From: Macrostomum lignano
Lineage: Eukaryota
NCBI GenBank assembly: GCA_002269645.1
Contig: NIVC01000016.1
Span: 310,001-374,000 of the forward strand
Reading direction: 5' to 3'
Length of the DNA: 64,000 nt
Positions 37,367-62,438 of this stretch are shown in pieces. The notes under the pieces were generated by a model that was not told the DNA's origin, made no database searches, and was given only the letters and a program-made list of their open reading frames with translations. The position numbers and the translations under genes are program-made. Position 1 is the first letter of the stretch; every line of letters starts with the position of its first letter.

Positions 37367-38859
37367 AAAAAGAAATACTTGTGTGTGTGCACTATCCAAA
37401 TATTAATATTCAAACGAAACCCATATCAGCTTCTGTTTTGCTCGTAATGGTTTTCAGGACTACTTCAAATGCTAGGGTGTGTTGCTATAGGGGATATAGG
37501 TTGATTAAATGGTTTTTATGATGTACTTTTTAGCTAATATAATTGCTTAATAAACTTATCTAATGTTTCGAACTCTTGGTCAGTGTTCTTTAAACTTCTG
37601 CATGCATGCTGCAGTTTCAAATGGAGCTCGCTGCTGTTAATTGTCAGGTAATAAACATTGCATGCCCTACTGAATCAAAATAAACTTGCTAGTAAATTAG
37701 CTACAGTTGTAAGAGCCATTATTCCTTGCCTACTATACTTATACATTGCCTTATAAATACGACTATTTTTTATATTCGATTGAAGAATTCTGTGCCTAAT
37801 AAATATATGTTTTTAGTATTGTTAAGTAGTAAAATAGCATCAATAGTAGCTTTTAGCCTAATTCTGTGTCTTTAATTAGTTTTAATACGTACGCCATTTT
37901 TACCTGTAATACTATAAAAGAGAGAGAGAAAAATAAACGAAGGAGAACTTGCGCTCGTTGGTTTCCTCCGCCTGCCAATTTTAGACTCCGGTCTTGGCCC
38001 CAGCGGTTGTAATTGTTCCAAAAATAGATCTGAATTGGTCTTAGTCATTTAAAGGCGCTCCGCCTCCCCTCTCCCACGGAGCTTCGTACAGCCAGAAGCG
38101 TACAGGCCTCCTTTCCCCACTCTCCCCAGGACGTGCAGTCCCACCCCAAGCCGCTCCCCTTTCCTCCTCTTTCCCAGAGAATATACGTCCCGCCCCTCAA
38201 TCCTCTCCCCTCTTTGTGGACATTCTGTCTGCACAGGTGTACAGCCTTATTCCCTCGGACTTACAGTCTGATCCTCCCCCAAGCATCCCCGCTCCCGACC
38301 CTTCTTCGTAGAAATTTCCCACATTCATTAGGCAGATTGCCTTCTTATCTAATGCTGTCAGCATTCCCTATTAGTATTTAGAAGTTCCCCTTAGTGTGCT
38401 TTCCCAGGCAACTCTGATCCATCGCGAAGCCCTTAATTCCATCTCCCATCTATATTTCCCGGACTGAGAATAGAAACTGTGTCTTGCCGCTCGGACACAC
38501 CACGCCACCAGGAGCAACCTACGGCTTACTCCTGTTAGTAGTATAAATTGCGAAGTTCGCCCGGATTCTAAGAAGACCCTGAAAATTCCAATAACCCTCG
38601 ACTCCCCTTACAACAGATTTTGGTGTCAGAATAGGAAAACTTCCCTCCCCCAAGAACCCTATAACAAATTTGATTGCAGCAGTAAGATTCTTAGACAAAA
38701 AGACCAGAACCCTACAACAGATTTGGTAGCAGCGTTGTGATAAACCACAGGCAGAAGTTTACCCCCTACAACAAATTTGGTGGCAGCGGTGGGATTTGAA
38801 TCTGGTGAAACGCGCACTCAAACCCCAGTATAATTTCCATCCCCTATCCCCGAAATACA

Positions 38860-39873
38860 ATGGCCGCAGGAATCAATGAAGCCCTTGCGCTCTTAGCTGA
38901 AGAGCTCCGCAACCGACTCGAATTAGGCCCCCTTAGACATGTGAAAATCCAGAAATACCTCCCCAGCCAAGATATCAGAGTCTGGCTTACCGCATTCGAT
39001 CAGCAATGCGAGAACGAAGGAATAGATGAGGAAAACCGGAAGCAGGAACTGCTTACCAATCTAGACCTGAGTACTGCGTTTGCAGCAGTTCAACGCCTCA
39101 ACCTCCCAGCTAATCTCCCCTATGAAGATTTCAAGGAAAGACTAATCGAAAGATTTGGAAAAGTAGGTAGCTCCGCCGAATTTCGCGAAGAGTTTAGGAA
39201 TCGCTGCCAAGGCAGAAACGAATCCACTGACAGTTTTGCCGATGCCCTAATAGAATTAGCCTCCCGCGCATTCCTAAATATGGATGCTGAGCAGAGAGAG
39301 GAAGAACTGGTCGAGCAGTTCATTAAAGGTGTAAGAACCCCTCCCGACACCCGTGAGAAGCTAATTTTTGCCCAACCGGCTAGTCTCCAAGCCGCCCGCA
39401 GAATGCTGCGCAGAATTGAAGCTGCTTATCAGATGTCCCACAAAGGTGGAATTAGAGTGACTAAAGATGAGAAAGAGGAGAATAAGGCTAAAACTGATCA
39501 ATTGATCATCAATCAGCAGAACCAGATTGACCGCCAAGAAAGGCTTATTCAGAACCTGCAGAAGCAACTGGCCGAAACAGCGCAATGCGCCCCGCCATCT
39601 CAGGTGTTCCCCCAGCAACAGTATAGGCAGCCACCCCAGCAGCAGTACAGACAGCCACCCCAGCAGCAGTACAGACAGCCACCCCAGCAGCAGTACAGAC
39701 AGCCACCCCAGCAGCAGTACAGACCGCAACCTCAGCAGCAGTACAGGCCCCAGCTGATGAACCAGCCGCCAAGACGTGAACCCCCAAGAAGAAATGAACG
39801 TCAGCCCCCTAACCCAAGATATGAGCCGCTGAAGTTCCGCAACCCCCGTGACTCCCAGAAGTCGGGAAACTGA
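38860..39873 (+). CDS. Gypsy Gag (337 aa), capsid-like domain, no CCHC knuckle, PQQQYRQ repeats
   Basis: W..F..W/L..F-type CA motifs (VWLTAFDQQC, YEDFKERLIERFG, QGRNESTDSF); ends at the slippery site GGGAAAC-TGA. Confidence 0.9.
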   Translation: MAAGINEALALLAEELRNRLELGPLRHVKIQKYLPSQDIRVWLTAFDQQCENEGIDEENRKQELLTNLDLSTAFAAVQRLNLPANLPYEDFKERLIERFGKVGSSAEFREEFRNRCQGRNESTDSFADALIELASRAFLNMDAEQREEELVEQFIKGVRTPPDTREKLIFAQPASLQAARRMLRRIEAAYQMSHKGGIRVTKDEKEENKAKTDQLIINQQNQIDRQERLIQNLQKQLAETAQCAPPSQVFPQQQYRQPPQQQYRQPPQQQYRQPPQQQYRQPPQQQYRPQPQQQYRPQLMNQPPRREPPRRNERQPPNPRYEPLKFRNPRDSQKSGN

Positions 39874-42800
39874 GAAGCCAGGGTCGAGTTAAGAGGCCAC
39901 GCCCCTCAGGCCAAAATATTGCTTACTCTCCGGCCTCCCCATCATTCGAAAATGCCCCCCAACCAAAATACCGGCAACCTCCCCAGTACGGTTTCCGCTA
40001 TCCCCGCAAAACCTCCCATGTACAGCCAATGCCTGTGAATAATGCGATATCTGTCTCCCCCAATAATTTTTCACTTCTTGCCTTTGACGAAATCGACGAT
40101 GCCATGCCAAATGCCCCCCATGACCCCCATGTGTACAATGACCCCCATGCGACTACAGCTCACGCGACTGCTTCCCATGTAACCAATGCGATTTCTGCTC
40201 ATCACGCGTCCGCACCCCATGTACCCACTGCGCTTGCACCCCATGTATCCCATGCGATTAAAACCAATAATGCTTTATTCAGTGCTGAAACCCGCTCAAA
40301 GAAGCGACAAAAGCCAAAACCCAATTCCCCATCCCGAATCGACCTGACTAAGCTAGAAGGCTATGAAGCTGTAATTGTCGGCGATATCCAGAAAGAATCG
40401 ATTGATTTTCTGCTAGACACAGGCGCCAGAAATAATTTCCTGAGCCGCTCAACCTGGTCTAAGCTATTCCGTGCCGATCAAATCCGAGACACTAGCAAAT
40501 GTATCAGTACATTTGACGGTACCCCAGTTCAATTAGAAGGAGAAATATCCGCCCAAGTGAAGTTTGGCGATATCCAAATCGAAGTTGATTTCCTCCTATG
40601 CCGACATGATTGTGACAATATTCTAGGTATGGAATTTTTCCTATCCCAATGCGAAAGCATTCAGCTAGCCAAAGGAATGCTAGTGCTTAATGAAGGTACC
40701 TGTATACCCATGCAGTATACCCGCCTCCCCGTGAAAGTTTGCCGAGTCTATACTCAAGAAAGAGCTATCATCCCAGCTAATAGTGCCCTCCGAATACCCG
40801 TGAAGTTAGCCAAGAATTGTGAATCGAATTACGGCACCCCCATGACCATTGAAGCCATTGGCGATACTGTCCGAACCCGTGATTTCTCATTAGAAATGGT
40901 TCCAACCCTAGTAACTATGAAAGAAGGCAAAGGAATTGTTGAAATTATTAACCGCCACCCAGTAGATGTGAATTTAACTAAAACTTCCCTAATTGGCTTA
41001 GCCAGACCCATGAAGGCTAAAGACTTAACCTATTGGCAGACCCCAACTCCCAACCCCCAACCCCCTGCGAAAGTCAACCAGACTCAATGTACTGAAGATT
41101 CCTGGATTAATGAAGTGAGCCTTGGCCCTGAACTGTCAGATGAACAGCGAAAAGCAGTCATCGACTTGATGAAAGAAAACCGTGAAGCCTTTTCCCAGAA
41201 TGAATTAGACATGGGCCTGACACACTTAGTAACCCACGAAATCTCTATCAAAGACCCCACCCCCGTTAGAATCCCAGCCAGACGCATCCCCCCACACTTG
41301 CAAAAGCAAGTTGACGCCCAATTAGATGACATGCTAGCCAAAAACCTAATTAGACCCTGCTATTCAACCTACTCCACCCCCTTAGTAATTGTCCCCAAGA
41401 AAGACGGTTCTATTAGAATCGTGAGCGATTTCCGAGTGCTCAATTCAAGAGTTAATTACTACCCCTACCCCCTCCCTAATATTCAAGAGACCTTCTCCCA
41501 CCTAACTGGTAGCCAATACTTTAGTAGCCTTGATTTAAACTCAGGATACTGGCAAGTCCCCATCAAAGAAGAAGATAAGCATCGAACCGCCTTCTCCACC
41601 CTAACTAGAGGCCAATTTGAATATCAAGTGATGGCCCAAGGACTTTCCAATGCCCCCGGAACCTTCCAACGCCTAATGAATTTAGTCCTATTAGGAATCC
41701 AGCATAAGTTCGCCATGTCCTATATCGATGACATAATCGCCTACTCCCAAAATTTTGCCGACCATTTAGAGCACTTAAGAGAAGTGTTTAAGCGACTAAT
41801 TGCCGCAGGTCTGAAGTTGAGACCCAAAAAGTGCAATCTTTTCCATCACGAGTTGAAATATCTAGGACACGTGATTGGCCGAAAAGGCATTCAAACAGAC
41901 AAGACGAAGATTGAAGCAATCCAAACTTGGCCCCGTCCCAAAGACGTAAAAGAATTACGCAGTTTTCTTGGCCTATGCAATTATTATTGCCGATTCGTGA
42001 AGAATTATGCCGAAGTGGCTCACCCCCTATTTCAACTGACCCGAAAAGGAGTTCAGAATTTCCAATCTAAGTGGAGCAAAGTGCATGACGAAGCCTTTGA
42101 ATCCCTGAAGCAGCGCATGATGTCTACTGAAGTGTTAGCCTACCCCGAATATGTCGAAGATGAGAATGTGAAGATGGTGCTCGACACAGATGCCAGTGAC
42201 GACAGGATTGGCGCATGCCTTGGCCAAATCCAGAGTGATGGCATAGAGCGACCAATAGCCTATTTTAGTAGAGCAATGAAAGAGTCTGAGAAGCGATACC
42301 CCATTACTCGGAAAGAATTGTTAGCCCTTGTCGACGCTATGAGGCATTTCAGATTTTATCTGATCGGCAAGAAATTCTTAGCCCGAACTGATCATAAAGC
42401 GATAATTTGGCTCATGAGACAGACAGAAGCAACCGGAATCCTAGGAAGATGGATAGAGCGCCTAAATGAATTCAGGTTCGACATTGAACACAAAAGCGGC
42501 GCAAAGCATTCCAATGCCGACGGATTGTCGAGAAGACCAGCTGAGATAGCTGAAGCCCCTGAAGTATCCCCTGAAGTAGCCCCTGAACTTGCTGAAACAG
42601 CACCTGAAGTTTCTGAAGTCCCTGACGCAGCCACTGAGCCTGCTGAAGCGATCCTTGAAACCCCTGAAGTATCTGAAGTAATTTCTGAGAACCCTGAGCC
42701 AATCCCTGAGAAAGTTGAGAAGTTGACCCCTGTTCCCCTGAGAGATGAGAGTGCTCCCGCTGAAACTAAGGACAACCCCATGTCCCAGTCACCTGAAGCC

Positions 42801-44702
42801 CTGACAGAAAGCGAGACCCAGCTTGAATATCCCAAATCTAGGACAAAGCTAATTGTCTCAGGAAGAGAAGTAGATGAAAGAGAAGAAGAGACAGGAAAGT
42901 GTGAGAAACTATTAACTGATTATCTTCCCAGCCCCCTGAAGAAAGAACAAATTCTAGAAGCCCAAGCTGCTGACCCCATCATTAGAGCTCTATTAGAAGC
43001 TAAATCCCAGAAACTGAGCCAATTTCCCAAAACACCGGACGTGCCAGAAAAGATCAGTAAGCATTATGCACTGATGAAAATCGATAACGAATTATTAACA
43101 ATTGCCGAAGACGGAAAAACCAAAATTGTTTTGCCCCCATCCTTAGATAAAGCAGTCTTTACTGACCTTCACTGCAGCCCCCTCGCAGGACATTTAGGAA
43201 GAGATAAGACGCTCCAGAGAATCCGAGAAAGATTTTGGCGACCTGGACTAAGCACTTCAGTTGAGCAATTAATTGCTGAGTGCATCCCCTGCCTTGAGAG
43301 CAAGAAAGGACACTTTGTCCAGGCCCCAGTCCAGTCATTCCCCATTGGCGAAGCATTTAGCCGCCTGCACATAGATATTATCGGTCCAATTTCTAAAGAA
43401 AGCAAACGAGGTCATAAATATGTCCTGACAGTTGTTGATAGTACAACTAGATACCCCTTCGCTTTTCCCATTAGAAACCAAAAGTCAGACACAGTTATTA
43501 AGATACTACTTGAACGGATAGTAGCAGAATATGGACAGCCCACCTGGATCCACACAGACAATGGAAAAACTTTCGCTAGTAAACAATTTAAAGCTTTTTG
43601 CGAACTTTATAATATTCGCCACACCTTCACTACCCCCTACCATGCCCAATCTAATGGCTTAGTAGAACGGTTTAATAAGCAAGTCAAGTCAATCATCACC
43701 TGTCTGATCAATAAGGATCATGGTGATTGGGATTTACTAATTCCAGCAGCCCTAGTAGCAGTCCGCACCAGCCCCAATTCAACCACAGGTTTTTCCCCTC
43801 ACTTCCTATTATTTGGCAGAGAAGCCACCTTACCTCTAGACACTCAGATCAGAAGTACAGCAGAACACGCTGATTATCCCGCCTACATTACTAAGCATGC
43901 CGAAAGATTAGAGGAAGCTCATAAGATAGTCAAGAAGAAGTTAGAAAAAGTAGTAGAGAAAAGACAGACCGCCGCTGAAACCAATAAGCTCCCCCCGAGA
44001 GTCCCCATAGGTTGTCTAGTTTTAATTAATAACCCCCAGTTAGATAGCGAAGAATCCCACAAGTTCCACCGAAAGAAGAGATCCGCCTTTAGAGTTTTAG
44101 CCCAACTATCAGAAGTGGTTTTCAAAGTCCAGAAAGAAGAAGAAGGAGAATTAGTAGGAAAAGAAATGCTCGTGCATCGAGATAACTTAACTCCAGTCCC
44201 GAACTCAACCCCAGAACAAATCACTAAGGAAGGCCAGCGAGATGCCCCTGATTCCGCCCCTGTTCCCATCCCCACTTCCGCTAAACCTAAGAGACAACCT
44301 GTAATTAAGGAAGGCCAACCCCGCCGAAATTCCCAAAAATTAATCTTGCCCGAACCAGTTGAATCTGAAGAAGAATCCGATGAAGAAGAAATTAATTGGA
44401 GATGCCAAATTAGAGAAGCAGAGAACGAAGAGTTAGAAGAAGGAGACAATGAAATCCAGCCAGAAGAATGGAGTGAAGCCCAAGCAGAGGAAGCGAATGA
44501 AATGACCGATGAGTCAGAGAGTGAGGCCCCGAACGAAGAGATCCCTGAGCCCCAACCCCCCTCTCCTGCCCCGCGAGATCCCGAACCCCCGCGCCGTCAC
44601 CCCTACAATTTAAGGCCCCCACCCCAAAATAAACAGCGTTGCAACTGCCATCTAGACAGACTACTAATAGCACTAAACCTCTTGCGCAACTTAGAATTTT
44701 AG
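39864..44702 (+). CDS. Gypsy Pol (PR-RT-RH-IN), expressed in the -1 frame from gag
   Basis: PR LLDTGA, RT YIDD, RH DTDASD..E..D, IN HHCC (HCSPLAGHLG..CIPC) and DDE (HIDII, TDNG, VERFN). The frame is open from 39864 through ATG 40029 to 44702. Confidence 0.95.
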   Translation, partial: GKLRSQGRVKRPRPSGQNIAYSPASPSFENAPQPKYRQPPQYGFRYPRKTSHVQPMPVNNAISVSPNNFSLLAFDEIDDAMPNAPHDPHVYNDPHATTAHATASHVTNAISAHHASAPHVPTALAPHVSHAIKTNNALFSAETRSKKRQKPKPNSPSRIDLTKLEGYEAVIVGDIQKESIDFLLDTGARNNFLSRSTWSKLFRADQIRDTSKCISTFDGTPVQLEGEISAQVKFGDIQIEVDFLLCRHDCDNILGMEFFLSQCESIQLAKGMLVLNEGTCIPMQYTRLPVKVCRVYTQERAIIPANSALRIPVKLAKNCESNYGTPMTIEAIGDTVRTRDFSLEMVPTLVTMKEGKGIVEIINRHPVDVNLTKTSLIGLARPMKAKDLTYWQTPTPNPQPPAKVNQTQCTEDSWINEVSLGPELSDEQRKAVIDLMKENREAFSQNELDMGLTHLVTHEISIKDPTPVRIPARRIPPHLQKQVDAQLDDMLAKNLIRPCYSTYSTPLVIVPKKDGSIRIVSDFRVLNSRVNYYPYPLPNIQETFSHLTGSQYFSSLDLNSGYWQVPIKEEDKHRTAFSTLTRGQFEYQVMAQGLSNAPGTFQRLMNLVLLGIQHKFAMSYIDDIIAYSQNFADHLEHLREVFKRLIAAGLKLRPKKCNLFHHELKYLGHVIGRKGIQTDKTKIEAIQTWPRPKDVKELRSFLGLCNYYCRFVKNYAEVAHPLFQLTRKGVQNFQSKWSKVHDEAFESLKQRMMSTEVLAYPEYVEDENVKMVLDTDASDDRIGACLGQIQSDGIERPIAYFSRAMKESEKRYPITRKELLALVDAMRHFRFYLIGKKFLARTDHKAIIWLMRQTEATGILGRWIERLNEFRFDIEHKSGAKHSNADGLSRRPAEIAEAPEVSPEVAPELAETAPEVSEVPDAATEPAEAILETPEVSEVISENPEPIPEKVEKLTPVPLRDESAPAETKDNPMSQSPEALTESETQLEYPKSRTKLIVSGREVDEREEETGKCEKLLTDYLPSPLKKEQILEAQAADPIIRALLEAKSQKLSQFPKTPDVPEKISKHYALMKIDNELLTIAEDGKTKIVLPPSLDKAVFTDLHCSPLAGHLGRDKTLQRIRERFWRPGLSTSVEQLIAECIPCLESKKGHFVQAPVQSFPIGEAFSRLHIDIIGPISKESKRGHKYVLTVVDSTTRYPFAFPIRNQKSDTVIKILLERIVAEYGQPTWIHTDNGKTFASKQFKAFCELYNIRHTFTTPYHAQSNGLVERFNKQVKSIITCLINKDHGDWDLLIPAALVAVRTSPNSTTGFSPHFLLFGREATLPLDTQIRSTAEHADYPAYITKHAERLEEAHKIVKKKLEKVVEKRQTAAETNKLPPRVPIGCLVLINNPQLDSEESHKFHRKKRSAFRVLAQLSEVVFKVQKEEEGELVGKEMLVHRDNLTPVPNSTPEQITKEGQRDAPDSAPVPIPTSAKPKRQPVIKEGQPRRNSQKLILPEPVESEEESDEEEINWRCQIREAENEELEEGDNEIQPEEWSEAQAEEANEMTDESESEAPNEEIPEPQPPSPAPRDPEPPRRHPYNLRPPPQNKQRCNCHLDRLLIALNLLRNLEF

Positions 44703-45079
44703 CCCGTCTACACCTTCCTACCCCTCCCTCGCCGTCCCCATTCGCCCAACAGACCCCAAATTTTAGACAAAGAGAGCCCTCGACTAGACCCTTGCTATAC
44801 ACAAAGGACCCCTCGAATTATCGATCGACAAAGAAACTAGAGCCCAAAGAGCGTAGAAAAATGAGGTTGGTCACGAAAACAAGAGGACCTCCCTGGTCTG
44901 TGAACAATAGTCAGTAAATATAAGCATTTTTAGGCCGTTGCACAATCAGATCCCAAGCCTCCTGCTCTCCAAAATTCCCGAATCCTCCGCAATCATTACT
45001 GTCAAGCCCGACTTTTAAAATTTCTACTATCCAAGCGATTTTTAAGACCCTATACTGATCAAGCAATCAGTCCCCAATC

Positions 45080-46075
45080 ATGTACTCCGAGGAGAGTCTT
45101 AGGCAATTAGAGGATGACCTCCGCCTCAGCGATTCTGACGCTGATGAGTTCGACGACGAATCAGATAGCGACTTGCCTGTCCCCGAGCGCCAGCCTACGA
45201 GACCAAGTAAGCCCGGTCCCAAGCCCCGCATCGCCTCGGTTGTGACCCGTCCTCCGCCATCCACCTCAAACGCCTGCCCACCGTCATCCGCCTCAGACGC
45301 CTGTCCTCCGCCATCCACCTCAGACGCCCGCCCGTCGCCATCCATCTCGGAAGCTCGAGTAGCACTGCTCAAGCGTCACGCCGACGTGCCAGTTGCTATC
45401 TCCCCGGCCGCCATTCAACGCCAACCCCCCAACACCAAGTCGGCTATCGTTTTGAGCACGAGTGAAGCCCCGCCGCCGCCCATCCGCAAGAGACTTGGAC
45501 CCCGTCCTTCATCAGCGCAACAAGAGTCTCGACCCCGCTCCCGATCTCCGCCGAAGCAGCAGCCTGTGAAACCTCTTGTCACCCCGCCGCCGAATTATGG
45601 AGTACGGCCGATGAACCAGCCGCGTCCCCGCCCCGTTCCGCCGATCAAAATGGAGCCACTGGATTCTGGCATACCGCCCCTGATGGCCGGCTTTGTCAGG
45701 CAGGATCAGCCGCTGCGCGAAATCGGCGGTAACTTCACACAAGCTGTTGAGAGCCTGCCGGAGGCTCAGCGTGCCAGCTACCGCCGCCTGATTACGGCCA
45801 TTAAGCTGTACTTGGTTCAGGCTGGAAGGTTTCGAGACGGACGCGAATTCCCACAGCGCGAGACTCTGCGGCCAGTTTTAAATAATCTGCGCCAACTGCA
45901 GCCCGTGCACGCAGTCGCTGCTTGGAGGCGCGCTGTGCACTACGCACTATCGGACCTTCGTCGCGGCCCTCGACGTTTCAACGAGCAGAGCCTCGGCCTC
46001 GAAATTCGCTGGCTCGGCCAGGAGTGCGGCTTGCCGTATCGTAATCAACTGCCAAGCGAGTTTAATATGTTTTAG
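45080..46075 (+). CDS. Gypsy ORF3, unknown non-Env accessory protein (331 aa)
   Basis: Intact ORF between pol and the PPT with an acidic N-terminus, a Pro/Ser/Arg-rich disordered middle and a helical C-terminal domain. No signal peptide or TM segment. Shares motifs with the degenerate ORF at 54009-57620. Confidence 0.8.
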   Translation: MYSEESLRQLEDDLRLSDSDADEFDDESDSDLPVPERQPTRPSKPGPKPRIASVVTRPPPSTSNACPPSSASDACPPPSTSDARPSPSISEARVALLKRHADVPVAISPAAIQRQPPNTKSAIVLSTSEAPPPPIRKRLGPRPSSAQQESRPRSRSPPKQQPVKPLVTPPPNYGVRPMNQPRPRPVPPIKMEPLDSGIPPLMAGFVRQDQPLREIGGNFTQAVESLPEAQRASYRRLITAIKLYLVQAGRFRDGREFPQRETLRPVLNNLRQLQPVHAVAAWRRAVHYALSDLRRGPRRFNEQSLGLEIRWLGQECGLPYRNQLPSEFNMF

Positions 46076-47669
46076 TAGCATTTGACATTCATTTTGCATG
46101 CGTAAAACTTTTAGATACATCATTTTGTCTCCATAATCTACGTTTTAATTTTGTGTGTATTGTTCATTATTGCTTTATTAGTACTTTTTGAAAAATTTTC
46201 ACTCATTACTCATTCAAATTTTTCAAGCCAGGAAGGCCAATTGTAAGAGCCATTATTCCTTGCCTACTATACTTATACATTGCCTTATAAATACGACTAT
46301 TTTTTATATTCGATTGAAGAATTCTGTGCCTAATAAATATATGTTTTTAGTATTGTTAAGTAGTAAAATAGCATCAATAGTAGCTTTTAGCCTAATTCTG
46401 TGTCTTTAATTAGTTTTAATACGTACGCCATTTTTACCTGTAATACTATAAAAGAGAGAGAGAAAAATAAACGAAGGAGAACTTGCGCTCGTTGGTTTCC
46501 TCCGCCTGCCAATTTTAGACTCCGGTCTTGGCCCCAGCGGTTGTAATTGTTCCAAAAATAGATCTGAATTGGTCTTAGTCATTTAAAGGCGCTCCGCCTC
46601 CCCTCTCCCACGGAGCTTCGTACAGCCAGAAGCGTACAGGCCTCCTTTCCCCACTCTCCCCAGGACGTGCAGTCCCACCCCAAGCCGCTCCCCTTTCCTC
46701 CTCTTTCCCAGAGAATATACGTCCCGCCCCTCAATCCTCTCCCCTCTTTGTGGACATTCTGTCTGCACAGGTGTACAGCCTTATTCCCTCGGACTTACAG
46801 TCTGATCCTCCCCAAGCATCCCCGCTCCCGACCCTTCTTCGTAGAAATTTCCCACATTCATTAGGCAGATTGCCTTCTTATCTAATGCTGTCAGCATTCC
46901 CTATTAGTATTTAGAAGTTCCCCTTAGTGTGCTTTCCCAGGCAACTCTGATCCATTGCGAAGCCCTTAATTCCATCTCCCATCTATATTTCCCGGACTGA
47001 GAATAGAAACTGTGTCTTGCCGCTCGGACACACCACGCCACCAGGAGCAACCTACGGCTTACTCCTGTTAGTAGTATAAATTGCGAAGTTCGCCCCGGAT
47101 TCTAAGAAGACCCTGAAAATTCCAATAACCCTCGACTCCCCTTACAACAGATTTTGGTGTCAGAATAGGAAAACTTCCCTCCCCCAAGAACCCTATAACA
47201 AATTTGATTGCAGCAGTAAGATTCTTAGACAAAAAGACCAGAACCCTACAACAGATTTGGTAGCAGCGTTGTGATAAACCACAGGCAGAAGTTTACCCCT
47301 ACAACACAGTGAAAGTGAGTTTTCAAAGTTTTTGCTTTACTTCTTTATAAAAAAATGGATCTAGATAAGTACGCTCATAGATAAACAGATTCTGTGTGAT
47401 TTGATTCGCAAATTAAAAAAATCAGTGGATTTTTTTTGAATAATAATTTAAAGTGGCATGTCTGTTAGACAACTGTATAACGCTTTTAATTGCAAGCTCT
47501 TAGCGCGAATAAGTAAACTTAATCATTAAATTTGCATATTTAAATGAAAAATTAAAAATTAATTAAAAATTAAAAATTAAAGTAACTAGGAGTACCTTCA
47601 GCATGCTCACTGTTAATCAAAATAGTTCGCATTATAATCATAAACTACATGATGAGGGATGTGCCAAAG

Positions 47670-50851: not shown

Positions 50852-51072
50852 ATAAGAATATATCATTGAGGACCAAAATATCGCAAAATTTCATCCAATA
50901 AATTGGAAGAACCTGCGGGTGGAATCTGTCGGCGAAGTGACGAATGAAGAGCTTTTGGACTTCTTGAACTTTAGATACGTAAAATACTTCCGATTTTCCG
51001 ATTTTTCTGAAACTTTTAGAGGGTGTCCAAAATAATAATTAAGAAAAAAACTACAAAAAATACCCTCAGAGG

Positions 51073-51911
51073 TAACTCGAGCTCGATTTGTTAATCTATG
51101 TTATTAGTGATGTAACTCGAGCTCGATTTGTTAATCTATGTTATTAGTGATGTAACTCGAGCTCGATTTGTTAATCTATGTTATTAGTGATGTAACTCGA
51201 GCTCGATTTGTTAATCTATGTTATTAGTGATGTAACTCGAGCTCGATTTGTTAATCTATGTTATTAGTGATGTAACTCGAGCTCGATTTGTTAATCTATG
51301 TTATTAGTGATGTAACTCGAGCTCGATTTGTTAATCTATGTTATTAGTGATGTAACTCGAGCTCGATTTGTTAATCTATGTTATTAGTGATGTAACTCGA
51401 GCTCGATTTGTTAATCTATGTTATTAGTGATGTAACTCGAGCTCGATTTGTTAATCTATGTTATTAGTGATGTAACTCGAGCTCGATTTGTTAATCTATG
51501 TTATTAGTGATGTAACTCGAGCTCGATTTGTTAATCTATGTTATTAGTGATGTAACTCGAGCTCGATTTGTTAATCTATGTTATTAGTGATGTAACTCGA
51601 GCTCGATTTGTTAATCTATGTTATTAGTGATGTAACTCGAGCTCGATTTGTTAATCTATGTTATTAGTGATGTAACTCGAGCTCGATTTGTTAATCTATG
51701 TTATTAGTGATGTAACTCGAGCTCGATTTGTTAATCTATGTTATTAGTGATGTAACTCGAGCTCGATTTGTTAATCTATGTTATTAGTGATGTAACTCGA
51801 GCTCGATTTGTTAATCTATGTTATTAGTGATGTAACTCGAGCTCGATTTGTTAATCTATGTTATTAGTGATGTAACTCGAGCTCGATTTGTTAATCTATG
51901 TTATTAGTGAT
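51073..51911. repeat. Perfect 40-bp tandem array, about 21 copies
   Basis: Unit GTAACTCGAGCTCGATTTGTTAATCTATGTTATTAGTGAT; no spacers. Confidence 0.98.
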
Positions 51912-52199: not shown

Positions 52200-53412
52200 T
52201 CGTTGCGACTACTAGCCGTACATTCTGCCAGAAGCTCCATCCTCAGCATCCTGCACGCTGGACACCCGGGTATCGTCAAGATGGACCTTAAAGCCAAAGA
52301 CTACTTCTACTGGCCATGCAGGAACGCGCAACTGCATCGAGCGGACTGTTAGCCAGTGCGAGGCCTGTCAGCGGAACATGAAGGCGCAGTCGGAGACTCT
52401 GATGACCATTGATATGCCTGAGTTCCCGTTTCAAGTTTGCTCTACCGACCTGTTCGAGTACCGCGGTGCAACCTATCTGGTGTACGTGGACGCCTACAGC
52501 CACTGGATGAGCGTCACCCGACTGCGCTCGACGACCAGCAACGCCGTGGTGCAGGTGCTCCAAGACCATTTCCAGAACTTTGGTGTGCCTGAGAAGCTCA
52601 TCAGTGATAACGGTCCGCAGTTCTCGGCCGGGGAATTCCGCCAGTTCATCAAAAGATTTCAAGTGGAGCACCGCATGTCGAGTCCAACCTACCCGCAGTC
52701 GAACGGCAGAGCAGAGCGATATGTGCAGACATCCAAGAATATGATGAAGAAGTGTCAGGAGACTGGTCAGAGCCTGGCCATGGCCCTTCTGCACTATCGC
52801 AACACGCCAGTCGGTAGCGGCTTTCCAAGTCCCGCAGAAATGGCGTTCGGCCGCAAACTCCGGTGCGATTTGCCTACAGCGGTGCAGGATCTGCGGCCTC
52901 GGGAGACCCCCGTGCACGCCAGCATTGAAGCCTTTGAGAAGCAACGGACCCAAGCAGCTCAACTCTACAATCGCGGTGTCCGCGCACTGCAACGCTTGAA
53001 GGTCGGCGAACCGGTCTGGCTTTAATGCGGTCGCCGAGATTGGGCGGCTGCCGAGGTAGACAACGAAGTTGACGGCAGCCCAAGGTCCTACTGGCTTCGC
53101 ACCGAGTCGGGACAGCTACTCCGGCGTAATCGGCGGTTCATGCGGCCTCGTCAGATTGGCGTTCCGTTCTATGAGAGCTACCCGGAGGCCGGCGAGGATG
53201 GCGAGATGGAAGCGAATGTGCAGCCGGCACCTGTGCAGCCGGCACCTGAGCAGAGGGCACCTGTGCAGCCGGCACCTGTGCAGCCGGCACCTGTGCAGCC
53301 GGCACCTGTGCAGCCTGACCAGTCGGAGTGCTCCGGTTCGGAACAGCCTGGATTCCGAACCAGGCGAGGTCGACTCGTACAACAGCCAAAGCGGTACCAG
53401 GCCTCGTGGTGA
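52200..53412 (+). pseudogene. Gypsy (Mag/K02A2.6-like) integrase relic
   Basis: LHAGHPGIVKM..YFYWP / CEACQ (frameshift); TDLFEY..VDAYS..SDNGPQF..PQSNGRAER; premature TAA at 53023-53025; tail RSYWLRTESGQLLRRNRR..RTRRGRLVQQPKRY. Confidence 0.88.
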
Positions 53413-53849
53413 ACCAACCCAGTGAACTGATAATTGATTGCGATTGACTGATTGACTGTAATGGCGTATTGGCCGTTACACTATAATTGCGAGAAACTTT
53501 ATTGTTGGTATAATCCTTGTTTTATTCCTGCTTTGTGACAAATATTTATTCATAAATGTTATCTCGAGCGACTTTGCAATGCAAGAACAAATATTTTATT
53601 TTAATGTTCCGTTACTTTTACTCTTCGAACTCGTAGGATTATCGTTAACTAATGTTGGGAGGTTTTGTGTGTGGCTTGTGTGCACTAATATTTACTCTCG
53701 CAATTTCGTGTACATCTATGTACGCTGACCCCCACCCCTTCTATCTACAGTGAAGTTCTCAACAATATATATCGGTGTTTACCCAGTGTCTGGGTCTAAG
53801 ATTTTTCTCGCTCGCTCGCAAACATGACTTGGCATTTATCATAACATGC

Positions 53850-56800
53850 ACCACTCCGGTGGAAGCGCCTGTAGGACCTGTACATGTTGGTAGGCCTGCT
53901 AGGAATCGTAGGCAGCCTGATAGGCTAATCGTTAATCATAGGGCCAAAACGTATGTTAGCAGAATCGCCCGCATCCGTGCACAGAATAAAACGCATTACA
54001 GCTTAGCGATGTCTCGCCTTCCTAACAAGCGCACTGAGCGCTCGCCGCCGACAGAGGACGAAAACCGATCGGCCAATCGTCGGGTTCGATACGTGGCCAC
54101 CTCTGTCCCAAACCTGCCGGCCCAAGCGATCGGCGCCGCGGCTGGGCAATATGAACCATTCGGAGGTTCTCCGGATGCGCCTCGGGTGCCGGTCCGCCTA
54201 AGACTAGGGTATCACCCGACCGCACGGCCGACGTTGCCGCCGCCAGGACATCGCTCTCCGCCGCCCGAGCGTCGACCGCTGATGGAAATTCTGCGTCTTG
54301 ACTTAGCTGCAGGGTGGTCCGTAGACACAGTGGGGAGGCGAGGGTCGCCCATTCCGCTAGCCCCTGAAGGCCCGCAGACAGGCAGAGGCGTGGGGCCGGT
54401 CAGGGTGGTCCGCCGGTCCGTCCTGCAGCGTGATCTTCCGTTGGGAAGAAACTGGCTCGTCTAGTCGCCCGAAGGAACTGGATGAGCCGTGGGATGCTGT
54501 CGGGCTGGCAGACCTCGTCAATGGACGGGTTCGGCCCGAGGTAGCGTAGCCGGTCTCTGTTAAAGAAAGGGCAGTGACAAACAAAGTGCTGAGCATCTTC
54601 ATTGTCGTACTCACAAAAGGGGCAAAGTTCGCTCTCGAGGTCACCTCGGAGGAAGCAGTGCCTGGCGAGGTAGCCATGGCCAGTAAGGGTCATGACAAGG
54701 GCTCGAATATCCTTCCGATTCTGGTTCAGAAGGATGTTTCTGAGCCTGCGAGACGGGCAAGGAACCGCGGCACGAGATTGCCGGCAGTTTTGAGTGCCCG
54801 CCCATCTGTCCCTGTGGAGGGAGTCAGCCCAGTCGTCGATCTGACGATTGATGACTGTCAAGGGCATAGGGACCAGGGTGGCAGGGCCGAAGAAAGAGCC
54901 AGAGCCGCCCCTCTTGGCGAGGGTGTCTGCCAGCTCGTTCCCCGGAAAGCCTGCGTGCCCCGGGATCCACTTCAGCCTGACAGTATTGCTACTGGCCAGG
55001 AGGTTGAGCTGCCGGGCGCAGTCGGCGACTGTCCGGGAGTTCGTTGTGGTGTGGCAAAGGGCCTGTAAGGCCGCTTGGCTGTCGGAGTGGATGACAATAG
55101 TGTTTCCTCTCGTACCCTTGGCATTCAGCTCTGCAGCGCAAGAGCTGATGGCAAGGACTTCGTTCTGGAAGACAGTGGAGAGTCTACCAGTGTGCTGGGC
55201 ATGCGTGGCAATTACGCGGCCGTCGATGATGATGCAGACCCCAAAGCCGGCGCGACCGTCTTTGATGGATCCGTCCGTGTAGCAATGGATCTCCTGGAAT
55301 TTCCAGTGGTCATTTGCAGCATCCCTAGAGGGGATGGTGACCTTGTAGCGCTGAAAGAGGTTGAGAGTGCGGGGTTCGCCGTCAGATAGGACGTGGAGCC
55401 CGCCGCTGTCTCTCAAGTCCTTGAGGCATAGGTCGGCGTGGGGCAAAAGCTTGCGCTTCGCCATGGCCCTATTGGGGCTGGATTCGAATGCCAGCGTCAG
55501 CTAGACGGCGGGCAGTCTTAGCCGCTTCCCTGCGGACAAAGATGTCCAGCGGAGGAATGTTGAGGAAGGCGTTGAGGCCATCGTAAGGAGCAGACGGAGG
55601 GGCGCTCATGATCATGCGACATGCGCGCCCTTGCGCTCTCCCGAGAGCCTCTAGACAGGTCTTTACCTGCAGGGCGCTAGCCCAGATCAGGCCGCCATAC
55701 GAGATAGCGGGCCTAACCATTGCAGTGTAGATCCACCAGAAGCGCTTGGGGGTAAGTCCCTAGGTGGTGCCGACAGCCCTGCGCAGTTGCGCAAGGACTG
55801 CAAGGGCCCTCTTGGCTTTCGCTTGAATGTAGGGCGACCAGTTTAGCCTGTGGTCCAGGGTAATACCTAGACATTTAGTCTGCTTGCAGAAGGGGATTTC
55901 CCTTCCGTAAAGCGTGAGCGGCCGAATCTGCCACTTGGTCCTGCTGGTGAACATGATCGCTGCGGTCTTAGTCTCAGAGAGCCTTAAACCACAGCGGTCC
56001 GCCCATTGCTCAGCGGCGTAGATGAGGTTCTGAAGAAGGTCCCTGAGGGTCTCAGGGGACGGACCAGATGCCACCGCGGTGACATCGTCCGCATATCCAA
56101 CTTTCAGAATGGGGTCAGGCCGAACATCCCGGAGGAGCTCATCGATGACCATATTCCAGAGAACTGGAGACAGCACCCCACCTTGCGGGCTACCTTTGCA
56201 GACGGGGACCGTCCTCTGGTAGCCCAGCAGACTGGCGGTGGCCGTGCGATGGCTGATCATGTACATGATCCATCTGGTGAGATGTGAGTGCGTTTGCCTC
56301 TCACGAAGAGCTCTTCGGAACGCCTCAAAGAGGACGTTATCGAAGGCGCCAATGATGTCCAGGAAGATCCCCAGAGCAAAGCCATTACCAAGCACGGCCT
56401 TCTCGAGTTTATCGACCAGGACATGCAGCGCGCTTTCAGTGGAGCGACCCGCCCGAAAAGCGTGCTGGTTCTCGCTGAGAGGTTTGTTCTTCAGCTCAAC
56501 AGAGTCAAGATGGAAATTCTGCGTCAGGAGCCGAGATGGGGCCAGAGGCACAACCGCCCCCCCCGGTGCCCCCCGCGGGGATCGAGTCAACCCCACGGGC
56601 GAGGGAGACTCCGCCTCACTTCGACTCCTGCGCACCGCTCCGACGCCGAGCTCCGCTGCCGGCATGATGCCTCCTAGCGAAGCGATCGGGCTGACTCTGG
56701 CCCAAGTCCGCTGGCAATTGGCTGCGCAGGGTGCCACTGCGACTCACGCTCCGCAAGCATCAGCTCCTAGTCCTCCAGCTCCGAATGCCATGGTCGTCGA

Positions 56801-58210
56801 CCCGACTCCACCGGTGCCGGGACCAAGGGCGCCGACGCAAAAGGCCGAAGCTATGACTCCACCCTGGCCTGGCCAGACTAACGTCTGGAACCGGCCTTCC
56901 CGCCTAACAGCAGCAGCACGCCACTGTCCCGGAGGACGCCCGGCCGGAGAGGCAGGATGCAGCGGCTCAGACCTCCGACCATGAGTTTACCGAGGACAGC
57001 TTTCCCACCTACTCGTGGAGCCAGCTCGCTGATGAACTGAGAGCTGCTTGTCCAGCGGCGCTTCCCAACTCGCCGCAGCCAGCTTTCACGGAGGACGCCG
57101 CCATCCAGTTTGTCAGCACGGGAGCATCCGGGCTGGATGTCGCCGGTATAGTCGGCTCAGGAGCATCCGGCCTGGACGTCGCAGGTACAGGAGCATCCGG
57201 CCTGGACGTCGCCGGTGTAGCCGGCACTGGAAGGTTCGGCCAGAACGTCGCCGGTCTAGTCGGCTCAGGAGCATCCGGCCTGGACGTCTCCGGTGTAGCC
57301 GGCTTGGGAGCGGACGGCCGGGGCATCATCGGCCTGACTGGCGGCCAGGCGCTGATTGACCAAGGGGCCACTTATGTCGCCGGCCTACTGGTCATGGCGG
57401 CCCAAGCCGGGGAGTGGCCCGACTTCGTGAAATGGCCGCACTGGGACCGGCTGCGTAGCCTAGCGGATGGTGAACGCCAGGTCCTGATGAACAGTGCAGC
57501 CCGGCTCGCTCGTAGCGAGCTGGCACAGCCACGGCACCCGGAAGTTCTGCACGCGGTCACCGGTCTCATCATCCGCGCCATCGCAGGCCGCGCACCGGTG
57601 ATGCCGGACATTATTGCTAGGTCCTGTGGAAATCAGAAAAAACAATCAACAGCAACTCGCATGACAATTGAATTCAGGACATTGCCCAGGGTGCTCCCAC
57701 CTCCCGAGCCTTCGGCTCAGCCGGGCACCGGCATGTCAAAGGGCCCCTTTTGCTCACTTGCATTTGTTCTCGGTGCTGTATTTAGGCGCCTGTTTTCTGC
57801 GGGCTGGCGCCCCCGCTTCTATTTAGGGCTTCATTACGGCCTTCGCTCAGCTGAAATTGCCATAAAAACGGTTGCGGCGGATTACGTTGCTCCCTTTTGC
57901 GCCGTTTGTGAGCGCCCCTTTCTCTTGCTCCACACTTACTTAGGCCTCTGCTCATTGTTCAACGGCAATCCACCATGTTTAGGCGCTACTTTCTCAGGGC
58001 TGGCGCCCCCTCCCATGTTCTAATACTCAAGGGCTGCAAGGGCCTTGGCCAAGCCATTGCGTCATTGTGACAATACCATATTTTTGCCAAAGACCCATCT
58101 CTTTCCTTTATCAAATTAAATTTTACTATTTAGCTATTTTATTAAATAAAGCGCGCTTCGCTTTCACTCCGCCTCTTCATTTGAACGGGGAGAGTGTAGT
58201 CGCACCTTTA
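53850..58210 (+). mobile_element. 3' portion of a second, degenerate Gypsy element (IN tail, ORF3 homologue, PPT, start of LTR)
   Basis: IN-tail-like RPARNRRQPDRL (about 53895); ORF3-like sequence from ATG 54009 to about 57620, split by a LINE and frameshifted; PPT GAACGGGGAGAG (58183-58194) followed by TGTAGT. Confidence 0.6.
54298..56508 (-). mobile_element. 5'-truncated non-LTR retrotransposon with RT + RNase H + C-terminal CCHC (LOA/Lian-like), pseudogenised
   Basis: 17-bp TSD GATGGAAATTCTGCGTC at 54281-54297 and 56509-56525; RT motifs QHAFRAGRST, FLDIIGAFD, GSPQGGVLSP, YADD; RNase H YTDGS..E..SDSQAAL..WIPGHAG..NELAD; W to TAG at 55762-55760 and a frameshift near 55466. Confidence 0.93.
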
Positions 58211-58212
58211 CC

Positions 58213-60372
58213 CGGGTCGACCAAGAAATGCTGGAGTTCATGGAGGAAACCATTAACACGAACCCGAGTATGACTTTAGCCAAGTTGAAAACTGGATTGC
58301 ACGCTCGTTATCCTGACAAGCATGATGTCTCCATCGCAACAATAGGTCGACACTTCGATGGGCTGTTGTACACAACGAAGCTCGTGAGAGAGTTGCCAGT
58401 AGAGAGAAATTCGCCGGCGAATCTGGAACAGCGTCGTGCCTACTGTGAGTGGTGGTGCAGTCCGGCTGTAGGCAACAGCCCAAAGGTCTATGTGGACGAG
58501 TTCGGCTTCAATTGTTGGACACGACGCACGCAAGGACGCGCTCCTCAAGGCCAGAGGGCATACAGACTCGTCGCAGGTTCAAAGGGTCCTCGTTTGTCGG
58601 TTTGCTGCGCTATATCTCCAGGGGTTGGAGTAATGCACTTTCAAACTTACCCGACTGGCATGACGAAAGAGCGTTTTGGTGAATTTCTCAACATCAGGCC
58701 AGCAACATCCAAGCTGCGTTCAATGTGCCAGCATACATTATTTACGACAATGTGAGCAGTCACAACGATGGTGAAGACCAAGAAGTCGCCGGAGTTGTCC
58801 AAATGTTGTGGCCTGCGCCACAATGACCTTCTCCTCAACCTTTTTTTTTGGTGCATGCGAACCGCCCAGTCTGCCGCCCTAGCTGGTTTGAGTTGGTTCA
58901 GCCGGCTTTGGTTTTAGGCAGCCGGCGTGTGCTCAGATTGGCTGGCTGGGCCGGCAGACCCTCGCTTTTCTACCCCCCCCCCCCGTTCGTAAAGCCTTAC
59001 CCAGCGCGTGTTTTGATTGGCTGGGCTGGGGTTGGGTGCTCGCGGGGTTCTGTTTTGTGTGTACTTGCGCTCAGGCCGGTTTGGCCCACTCCCCCATTTT
59101 TGGCATACTATTTATTAGCTGGCTTGGAACCGGCCGGTGGCACGCTGCTTGGATTTTGTGGTTAGAGCTACACCAGCGACTGAGTAGGAAAACTAATATA
59201 AAAGTACAAAACTGCATGAGCCCAGTGAATTCTCGAACAGTGCGTCACCAGCCAATCCGTGCCACCCGCCGTCCTCGAGCTGCCAGTACAGTTATCACGG
59301 CTAAATAGACTGCGCTATATGAGTCGGTTCGACCCCGCCCGGTGAGCTAAAATTACGTTGTTCGGGTTGCGTTCGCGTTTTTTGGGACTCTCTGCACGTG
59401 TCTCCCCTCCATCCTCGCCGCCTCATCGCTTCACTTACTCACCTCCTTGCTCACCTGCACTCTTCGATTGGCTTGGAGTGTCTGTACGCCCCAGCTAATC
59501 CATCACCTCGTATCTCTTAATTGGTCTCTTGAGTGTCTGTTCGCCCCGACCAATCCCTCGTCTCGCATCCCTTGATTGGTCCGGAGTGTCTGTACGCCCC
59601 AGCCAATCCTTCACATTCACCTCGCTTTCTCATTCACCTCGGTGACTCCCGGGCCGGCTCTGAGTGGCTATCCGCTCCGCCGACCGCGGCAGTACCCCGA
59701 GCCTTCCGTGACCGAGGAGTGTCTGTGCGCCCCCGAGTCGCATCTCTCCCTCTTTCCCTCGGAGTGGCCATCCGCCTCGAGGAGCGCCGGTCGTTCGCCT
59801 TCTGTCCATCCCTCCGCCGCGCACCCGGGGCAGTCCCACACCGAACCCGCTACCCGGGGAAAACAAACGACCGGGCTAGACGAGATCGCAGCCCGCGAGT
59901 ACAACACAAATACAACGCCTGTCACCTTACAGTCCGTTCTTGACGCCAGTCGAGAATGCAATTTCTACCTGGAAAGCTGCCATCAAGGCCGAGCTCACGA
60001 GAAACATGGACGCTTTCCTGAATCCGGACCAGGCGACATTGGCTGGACGAAGCAAGGCTACCTACCGGCGTGACCTTCTGGAGGCTGTCACAAATAACAC
60101 GGTGAACTTTGTGACGCCTGACAACTGCCACGCGTGGTACAATTACTGCTTGACCTACGTGCCGCGATGTATTGCGGGTGTGCCAATTAACGGCTGCTTA
60201 AATCATGCTACAGCTTATGACTATCCAATCATTTTGTGCTCACTTTACGCTCGTAATGTCATTCATGTTCTTTTGATTATTTCGATTGCCTGTTTTGTTT
60301 CTTTGAATTGCTTGTGTACTTCTCACGTACGTATGAGCTGTAAAAGAAAGTCAATACATTGAATATTCACTG
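58213..60372 (+). mobile_element. IS630/Tc1-mariner superfamily transposon (5'-truncated, disrupted)
   Basis: HTH region, then VYVDEFGFN, YDNVSSH and (after the solo LTR) PYSPFLTPVE; right end ...TTCACTG followed by TA (60373-60374); frameshift near 58690-58730. Confidence 0.85.
58804..59906. mobile_element. Solo LTR (1103 bp) inserted in the transposase
   Basis: Termini TGTTGT...ACAACA; 4-bp TSD CAAA (58800-58803 and 59907-59910); removing it restores the transposase frame (VVQ-I-QRLSPYSP). Confidence 0.9.
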
Positions 60373-60895: not shown

Positions 60896-62438
60896 TCCAT
60901 CCTCCTATATACTAAAAATGGTCTGTCTGTGTCTATCTATCTATGTGATCGATTAGAGAAAAAATGGCTGGACCGATTTTGTTCGAACTTGCACTGTTCG
61001 ATCAGAAATTTTCCCGTGACTGTACATGCATCGTGGCTAAGAAATTGCTCGATGCTAAAGGCATTAAATATTCGAAAAACATGCTTTTTCGCAAAGGTCA
61101 AGCAAACTTTTCGACTTGAAATGCATTGTAAGAATGCTAGAGAAAAAACTGACTGGTTGAATTCTGATTCTGAAATAGATTGCATCATAACTGAATTGTA
61201 ACTCCGACTTGAATTGAAAATGCAGTGTGGAAGCGTAGCACCAGACTTGATTTAAATTGCGTAACCATATTGTTAACTGATACTGACTGACTGAGAAACT
61301 GATTATGTCATAACTGCTTCGTGTGATTTACTCTATGCTTGGATTTTAAAGTGTTGAATTATATAAGTGCAAAATTTGATGTTATCAAAACGATAAGAGC
61401 TAGCCTAGAGGTAAACAGACTGAACTACTAAATGCAGAAACGATGGTTCGAATTTTCATAGAGTATAATTTTTTTTAATTAAAGCTTTTCAACGTCAGGA
61501 AAACTAAAAGACTTTTTAAAAAGAATCGTCATGTAAAAATCGTAGAAGCGTCATGTAAAAAATCATAGAAGCGTCATGTAAAAAATCATAGAAGCGTCAT
61601 GTAAACAATCATAGAAGTGTCATTTAAAAAAATCATAGAAGCGTCATGTAAACAATCATAGAAGCGTCATGTAAAAATCATAGAAGCGTCATGAAAAAAT
61701 CATAGAAGCCTCATTTAAAAAGTAATGAAAGTGTCATTTAAAATATTAAGAAGCATCATGGTAGAATAAAAGAAGCGTCATGTCAGACATGAAGGGTGTC
61801 ATGTAAAAATTAAATGAAGCTATAATGCTGTGCTGGGGAGAATTACTGAGACGTCAAGGCTCTCAGAGAATAACTGAGATTACGGGGGGGGTTTCTGAGA
61901 TGTCAAAGCAAAAGTCAGAGGCTACTTCAAAGTTCATGTACTTTACTCAATTTTTTATTGCATTCTTTGTTGGCTCGCCACGGGGGGGGGGGGCGCTGAT
62001 AAAAAAAGCGTAATGTAAAAAATAAAAGAAGCTTCATGTCGAACTTAAGAGATTCATTTGGGAATCCCTAAGATGTCGAGGCTTGCAGGGAATCGCTATA
62101 ATGCTGTAGTAGTGCTATAATGACTCTCAGAGAGAATTACTGAAATTTCAATGCTTTAGGGTTAGGTTAGGGTTAGGGTTAGGGTAGGGTTAGGGTTAGG
62201 CTAGGGTTAGGGTTAGAAGGTTGACAGATATTTTTAGATTTCCAAGGCTTATTGGGGGCATTGCTGAGATGTCAAGGGGGGAAGTTGATGTGTTAAAGCT
62301 TGTGGGGGGGAATTATTGACATGTCAAGGCTTACAAGGTTTGACAGGAGATTTTTTAAGATTTCAAGGATATATGTAGCTTATTAAAAAACGTGTATTGC
62401 ATTTCTTTGGCGCCCCAACGGGGGGCGTAGATTGCTAG
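60896..62438 (+). mobile_element. Non-autonomous Helitron, copy 1
   Basis: 5' A|TC..TATATACTAAAAATG with a GTCT microsatellite and GGCTGGACCGATTTT; 3' hairpin CGCCCCAACGGGGGGCG then CTAG|T at 62435-62439; internal 23-24-bp repeats and a TTAGGG tract. Confidence 0.82.

Follow-up and report, generated by a model that had tools for sequence, protein, structure and literature searches.

A decayed Ty3/Gypsy copy in Macrostomum lignano with a non-Env extra open reading frame past its integrase tail

The decayed element, its inserted LINE and its frame breaks

Here we describe the 3' end of a decayed Ty3/Gypsy retrotransposon in Macrostomum lignano. It lies in a window of 64,000 nucleotides (assembly GCA_002269645.1, contig NIVC01000016.1, positions 310,001 to 374,000 of the forward strand), and all positions below are counted from the first base of that window. 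The decayed copy, element b, occupies 53889-58201 and shares its lineage with an intact comparator in the same window, element a, at 37708-47306. Past the integrase (IN) tail of element b sits a non-Env extra open reading frame (ORF), here called ORF3b; the third ORF of element a is called ORF3a. Both are compared below with P0004, a single-member database gene model of 1931 aa. A first-pass annotation of this DNA had read 54009-57620 as one divergent ORF3, to be recovered by removing an inserted long interspersed element (LINE), and the parts that it listed are all present: the N-terminal peptide, a Pro/Ala-rich middle, GASGLDVAG tandem repeats (57118-57310), QAGEWPDFVKWP (57403-57438, within the helical domain of the 3' piece), the IN-tail peptide, the polypurine tract (PPT) and TGTAGT. 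The features are collected in Table 1.

Table 1. Features of element b, of the LINE inserted in it and of the comparator element a. LTR, long terminal repeat; TSD, target site duplication; PR, protease; RT, reverse transcriptase; RH, RNase H; phi, hydrophobic residue.
Feature	Position	Strand	Remarks
Integrase C-terminal tail peptide, element b	53889..54008	+	In frame and stop-free into the ATG at 54009; 31/40 residues identical in P0004, in the segment that follows its integrase
ORF3b, 5' piece	54009..54297	+	Two RSPP motifs; phi-x-x-RLG at 54192-54209; 38/86 aligned residues identical to P0004
TSD, left copy	54281..54297	+	Last base may also be part of the LINE 3' repeat unit (other LINE copies have loose ends at 54297)
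Non-LTR retrotransposon, 5'-truncated	54298..56508	-	Partial RT, RNase H, Cys/His tail (Pfam); high-copy family
TSD, right copy	56509..56525	+	Exact 17-bp match
ORF3b, Pro/Ala-rich middle piece	56526..56984	+	Second frame; 37/106 aligned residues identical to P0004, 1/2000 shuffles as good
ORF3b, 3' piece	56908..57620	+	Third frame; acidic linker, GASGLDVAG tandem repeats, helical domain; 45% over 56 aa to P0004, E 3e-9
PPT (58183-58194), then TGTAGT(C) from 58195, probable start of a truncated 3' LTR	58183..58201	+	Multi-copy stretch ends nearby
Intact Ty3/Gypsy element a	37708..47306	+	LTRs 99.6% identical, 4-bp TSD, gag, pol order PR-RT-RH-IN
ORF3a, separate intact ORF, 331 aa	45080..46075	+	phi-x-x-RLG at 45482-45499; C-terminal five-helix domain

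In a stop scan, the frame of the IN-tail peptide is open from 53754 to 54296, including the ATG at 54009. We infer that this is the Pol frame from the peptide's motif and its match to P0004, since an unrelated integrase fragment here stands in place of the part upstream. This fragment, at 52216-53412, was considered as the Pol of element b and ruled out: its E value to P0004 is 0.38, whereas element a reaches 7e-38. It is part of an unrelated Gypsy 3' fragment at 52216-53824 (integrase core, 15-bp repeats in the tail and a probable short LTR at ~53667-53824), which abuts the IN tail of element b and which we take to be Mag-like. The 5' part of element b is absent from the window, as is any LTR of element b there, and after the PPT just 6-7 bp of possible 3' LTR precede IS630/Tc1-type transposase sequence. 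That transposase is split by a solo LTR at 58804-59906 (TGTTGT...ACAACA, 1103 bp, 4-bp TSD CAAA), with no shown tie to element b. The 3' untranslated region of element b holds a 34-bp direct repeat (57781-57814 and 57978-58010, 85% identical). An RNA structure in the IN tail or in this untranslated region was considered and dismissed (z 0.14 and 1.35), and across 37000-61000 Rfam found no match.

The locus was also compared with contigs from 4 of the 24 listed public sequencing runs, here named X1, X6, X7 and X11; X6 was taken as DNA and X11 as RNA, both by guess. A search for RNA runs that contain the sequence listed none, which speaks neither for nor against expression. Summed contig depth in X6 is ~6,500 at 53883, 2,600 at 53938, 160-510 over the ORF body and 10,400 at 58162, with flanks at ~200. 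This pattern, which is not a copy number, fits many relatives that have the IN tail and PPT region in common and whose ORFs are less than 85% identical.

The interruption of ORF3b is a young, 5'-truncated LINE with a 17-bp duplication. The duplication is exact (54281-54297 and 56509-56525), has no third copy in the window and would arise by chance with a probability of ~1e-5 in the searched area. The 2228-bp insert contains RVT_1 (E 5e-26) and RNase_H (E 3e-14) on the minus strand by Pfam, and its summed contig depth in X6 is 46,000-207,000, against ~200 in the flanks. A LINE-free form of the locus is found in a 1020-nt X6 contig that passes from 53889-54280 directly to 56509-57137 and differs from the window by 13 substitutions and 1 gap letter, and the LINE junction is present in an X1 contig. 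The TSD, the LINE domains and the empty-site contig together establish that the insertion is real, as the first-pass annotation had it, and that only some forms of the locus carry it. Other LINE copies seem to end in tandem 9-nt units, of which the window copy has one (54297-54306; loose ends). A low-depth X11 contig at 56506-56951 differs from the window by 20 gap letters and presumably represents another copy or allele.

Excising 54298-56525 does not restore one ORF, contrary to what had been proposed, as two frame changes persist. If the LINE is disregarded, the frame of the N-terminal piece stays open for only 55 codons beyond the second TSD, up to a stop at 56675, and the middle and 3' pieces lie in other frames. 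The first-drawn end at 57620 is also in doubt: the TAG at 57618-57620 is out of the frame of the QAG domain, the helical domain of the 3' piece named after its motif, and that frame runs open to 58023. Codon-position GC, on the other hand, becomes flat after 57615, and a gap within 57259-57846 is seen in the X1 and X7 contigs and not in the X6 contig. An uninterrupted copy, as sought after the first-pass annotation, exists insofar as the X6 contig lacks the LINE. Across the frame-broken stretch, however, a single gap letter separates the X1 and X6 contigs from the window, so that one of the frame changes may exist only in this assembly or haplotype. One gap letter is too few for two frame changes, and element b was therefore probably frame-broken, and thus dead, before the LINE arrived. 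In itself the locus is unremarkable: it holds a dead element whose LINE insertion is polymorphic.

A relative that carries the same ORF

The extra ORF gains its context from P0004, the one match among 789 candidates in the homologue search. The Gag and Pol of P0004 match element a at 33-42% identity, with Gag 42% identical over 125 aa. Its integrase, which holds Integrase_H2C2, is 42-51% identical to that of element a (51% over 111 aa). P0004 then matches three pieces of the window in order, at 53865-54212 (50%, E 2e-18), 56631-56879 (35%, E 0.001) and 57373-57540 (45%, E 3e-9). Because these collinear matches follow a Gag and integrase of the lineage of element a, the IN-tail peptide is, to judge from its sequence, that of a Gypsy Pol from that lineage, and P0004 provides the interrupted ORF with an independent relative. 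P0004 thus ties the IN tail and all three pieces to element a-lineage Gag and IN, which bears out two earlier claims: that the extra ORF is a lineage feature, and that the region is Gypsy rather than a host gene or a non-Gypsy element. That the region is a piece of a captured host gene, or non-coding repeat sequence whose frames are open by chance, would suit a window copy that is broken at at least three places and for which family and homologue searches gave no family or close protein. This reading is highly improbable in view of the collinear amino-acid conservation with P0004 in a Gypsy Gag-Pol context and of ORF3a, which is intact in an element with 99.6% identical LTRs.

The ORF appears to be kept, yet to diverge faster than the IN tail: 31 of 40 IN-tail residues are identical between the window and P0004, against 35-44% in the ORF blocks (38/86, 37/106, 24/58 and 29/77). 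The 26 residues past the usual IN-tail motif are highly conserved between the two. The GASGLDVAG repeats were not found in P0004 and look like a copy-specific local expansion.

The integrase tail reads in frame into the ORF in element b as well as in P0004, and P0004 crosses the junction with a single-residue gap and no stop. In element a, a stop at 44702 closes Pol, and ORF3a is a separate ORF that begins at 45080. The order of features, which had been said to mirror element a, therefore does so in part: IN tail, ORF3, PPT and TGTAGT are all present, but ORF3b is in frame with the IN tail and ORF3a is separate. One consequence could be that ORF3b and its P0004 relative are not an RNA-export factor but a C-terminal extension of integrase, such as a module for chromatin or host-factor targeting or a particle component cleaved from Pol, with element a having split off a separate gene or having an unrelated ORF. 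The stop-free passage from IN tail to ATG and the conservation of the 26 residues would agree with an extension. Both copies, however, keep a Met at nearly the same position, acceptor-like AG sites lie just 5' of both ATGs by inspection, and element a fills the same slot with an ORF that stands by itself; we consider the extension unlikely. P0004 lacks an RT, and its ORF ends early. As the sole homologue found, and as a gene model in which false introns may mask frame breaks, it also tempers the case for the family as a whole.

Searches beyond P0004 returned little. Pfam has no family for the four ORF3 pieces, and NCBIfam gave a single match, below cutoff. Among 372 candidates for the ORF3a C-terminal domain (C-domain), and among 2734 for the ORF3b C-domain in longer proteins, no homologue was found. 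HMMER against 1.84 billion representatives produced 2 matches, both repeat proteins that were discarded on inspection, and the ESM Atlas held no usable match for either C-domain. Pattern matches were confirmed in 0 of 17 viral and 0 of 595 metagenome contigs, and a sequence search of the PDB found uteroglobin only, at E about 0.1. Extra non-env 3' ORFs are well known in LTR elements (PMC5408684; PMC7264820). A literature search that did not include Repbase and GyDB found no description of the ORF3a/ORF3b family. The available parts of PMC12801592 hold no 'ORF' entry, including in a word search of its 5 supplements, and its earlier classification paper was outside the search. The Gypsy 3' extra ORF family is real and apparently undescribed. 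The RT of element a is closest to Ty3 in the PDB, and these elements may belong to the Gmr1/Osvaldo clade.

The relationship between ORF3a and ORF3b

ORF3b had been taken for a homologue of ORF3a, and we think it fairly likely that it is a fast-diverging one. At the structural level, single-sequence AlphaFold2 models of the two C-domains (predicted local distance difference test, pLDDT, 72 for ORF3a and 52 for ORF3b) both contain a long helix to QAG, a loop to Pro and then three helices, in the same order. In the fold search, 15 of the top 50 matches are common to both C-domains, 13 of them on the same chain region, although this overlap is uncontrolled. It is this agreement, together with the lineage, slot, size class and motif order that ORF3a and ORF3b have in common, that raises homology to a fair likelihood. 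If the two are homologous, their N-terminal parts would both be long, disordered and rich in Pro and Arg, and each would have a small helical bundle at the C-terminus, a joint claim of the same strength.

Direct sequence comparison does not by itself establish homology. BLASTP between ORF3a and ORF3b gives E=0.007 and 0.07, near chance, and the scores are reached by 109/2000 shuffles for the C-terminal match (13/2000 when trimmed) and by 73/2000; a further similarity test was equalled by 33/500. Two unrelated segments among 389 in the window outscore the C-terminal match. A two-sequence profile of ORF3b and P0004 gives ORF3a 1.3 bits, with 29/1000 shuffles as good, the profile score of the N-terminal block is equalled by 157/500 shuffles, and the score of ORF3a with the P0004 C-domain, which 1519/2000 shuffles reach, is no better than chance. 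The structural agreement has its own weak points in the pLDDT of 52 for ORF3b and in the fold-match overlap, whose p is 0.22 if the pool of helical bundles is ~200 chains. ORF3a and ORF3b could be unrelated, Pro-rich 3' ORFs acquired independently in two sublineages, with the words QAG, RLG and RSPP recurring by chance in low complexity. Scores within or near the shuffle ranges and the differing arrangement, separate in element a and in frame in element b, would fit this. The coincidence of lineage, slot, size class, motif order and helix layout, and the overlapping fold matches, speak for common descent, and independent origin seems improbable to us.

The best individual fold matches, the C-terminal domain of Gle1 for ORF3a (Z 8.5, root mean square deviation 4.7, 125 aligned) and NF1 for ORF3b (Z 8.3, root mean square deviation 2.9, 81 aligned), fall in the common helical-bundle range and were dropped as functional evidence. 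Foldseek returned no match at E<=0.001 for the ORF3 C-domains. A helix word, phi-x-x-L-x-x-[DE]-L-R, occurs at 45098-45124, at 57016-57042 and in P0004 (1-6/1000 shuffles); it is a pattern picked post hoc, lies at differing positions and is also found in the Gag of element a.

Several other features of the window were noted. Each LTR of element a ends in three tandem units with att-like and primer binding site (PBS)-like parts, ~52 bp each, before the true end (38609-38790 and 47143-47306). The PBS-like words presumably resemble the 3' ends of different tRNA-Leu. A literature search on multiple PBS found nothing. The window also holds a BEL/Pao-type gag-protease ORF with DUF1759 (31343-33711, minus strand), a 40-bp unit in 21 perfect copies (51072-51911) and TTAGGG/CCCTAA tracts arranged as an inverted pair with duplicated flanks (62156-63512).

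A possible role in RNA export and comparison with known systems

The first-pass annotation had pointed to RLG and RSPP motifs common to the two ORFs, and this is correct: phi-x-x-RLG and RSPP occur in both ORF3a and ORF3b, and RLG and RSPP in all three proteins, P0004 included. The RLG is kept between ORF3b and P0004 within an otherwise variable stretch. Shuffled sequences contain phi-x-x-RLG in 33/1000 cases for ORF3a and in 12/1000 for ORF3b, and binding through it is only predicted. The ORF3 pieces also contain Arg runs, which in P0004 reach 8 Arg. The phi-xxRLG motif is a type-1 ligand of the RNA recognition motif of ALYREF, like the herpesviral ligands (PMC13370473). In the binding of ICP27 to REF, R107A and L108A abolish the interaction and W105A merely weakens it (PMC3017119). 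The CERV protein of Cer1, which is encoded in the env slot and whose residues are numbered as part of the polyprotein, comes from a spliced mRNA, undergoes proline-directed phosphorylation and is needed for export of genomic RNA (PMC10309623).

From these parts we assemble a tentative proposal, possible rather than probable as a whole chain, in which the ORF3 protein is an accessory factor for nuclear RNA export. It would be a soluble nuclear protein that acts like Cer1 CERV or herpesvirus ICP27, translated from a spliced or trans-spliced message, or else released from Pol by cleavage. Its Arg-rich patches would bind the RNA of the element, its phi-x-x-RLG would recruit the host export adaptor ALYREF/TREX, proline-directed phosphorylation at RSPP could serve as a switch, and unspliced genomic RNA would thereby leave the nucleus. 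Three observations count against this. The RLG of P0004 lacks the hydrophobic residue of phi-x-x-RLG, an RGG box is absent from ORF3a, ORF3b and P0004, and the RLG and RSPP motifs are short and were picked after being seen. Nuclear export signal patterns were uninformative (887/1000 shuffles).

The extra ORFs may instead be accessory genes with another role in host conflict, such as anti-silencing or transcriptional activation, to which the RLG would be incidental. Their fast divergence relative to the IN tail is in keeping with such a role. Disordered acidic and basic arms beside a small helical domain would suit many adaptor functions, and the 3' extra ORFs of animal LTR elements have varied functions (PMC5408684). 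We found no positive feature that points to a specific silencing target, and the RLG is retained where the surrounding stretch varies. We regard a host-conflict role as somewhat doubtful.

Stated for the lineage, the export proposal would mean that a group of animal Gypsy elements encodes an undescribed recruiter of ALYREF through an ICP27-type phi-x-x-RLG, a convergent route for export of unspliced genomic RNA, borne either on an in-frame Pol tail or on a free-standing ORF. We hold this to be doubtful. The literature search found no retrotransposon ORF tied to ALYREF via phi-x-x-RLG; the supplements of two preprints, which may refine the ALYREF motif, were outside it. If the proposal is true, this lineage would show a retrovirus-like regulatory gene at its birth. 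The function of most 3' extra ORFs of LTR retrotransposons is unknown, and the authors of the CERV study name this as an open question (PMC10309623). The present family gives a specific and cheaply testable hypothesis of function, with two arrangements, in frame with Pol and separate, in one lineage.

The same slot as that of ORF3b is occupied in errantiviruses by Env (PMC13524379), and sORF2/FAST-like fusogens are likewise extra ORFs in a Gypsy element (10.1101/2025.03.14.642691), although the ORF3 proteins are far longer than sORF2. The ORF3 protein is not Env, because its 19-residue hydropathy maxima are 0.72-1.45 and its conserved pieces hold 0-1 N-glycosylation sequons and 0-3 Cys (by hydropathy scan only, as concerns membrane segments); Pfam gave no match. 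Bdelloid non-env ORF3s (PMC5408684) and plant aORFs (PMC7264820) resemble the family in being family-specific extra ORFs in the env position. Where these have an assigned role, they encode DEDDy exonucleases, GDSL esterases or membrane proteins, and no such product was detected in the ORF3 pieces.

CERV, from the Ty3/Gypsy element Cer1 of C. elegans, is closer in arrangement: like ORF3b and its P0004 relative, it is an ORF in the env slot and in frame with the polyprotein, whereas ORF3a is separate (PMC10309623). CERV has G-like and Cys-loop (C4) M domains. In the ORFs described here no conserved piece holds more than 3 Cys, and there is a small helical bundle; the comparison is by description only. 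Fold searches of the ORF3 C-domains gave generic helical bundles only, and that no ICP27- or CERV-like fold was listed excludes nothing.

In ICP27 a helical C-terminal domain comes after a low-complexity N-terminal arm. Unlike ICP27 and ORF57, the ORF3 pieces have no RGG box, and with no evidence of homology the likeness would be at most convergent. It lies in the placement of the motif: in HSV-1 ICP27 and HVS ORF57, phi-x-x-RLG sits in a low-complexity N-terminal arm ahead of a helical domain, as it does in ORF3a and ORF3b.

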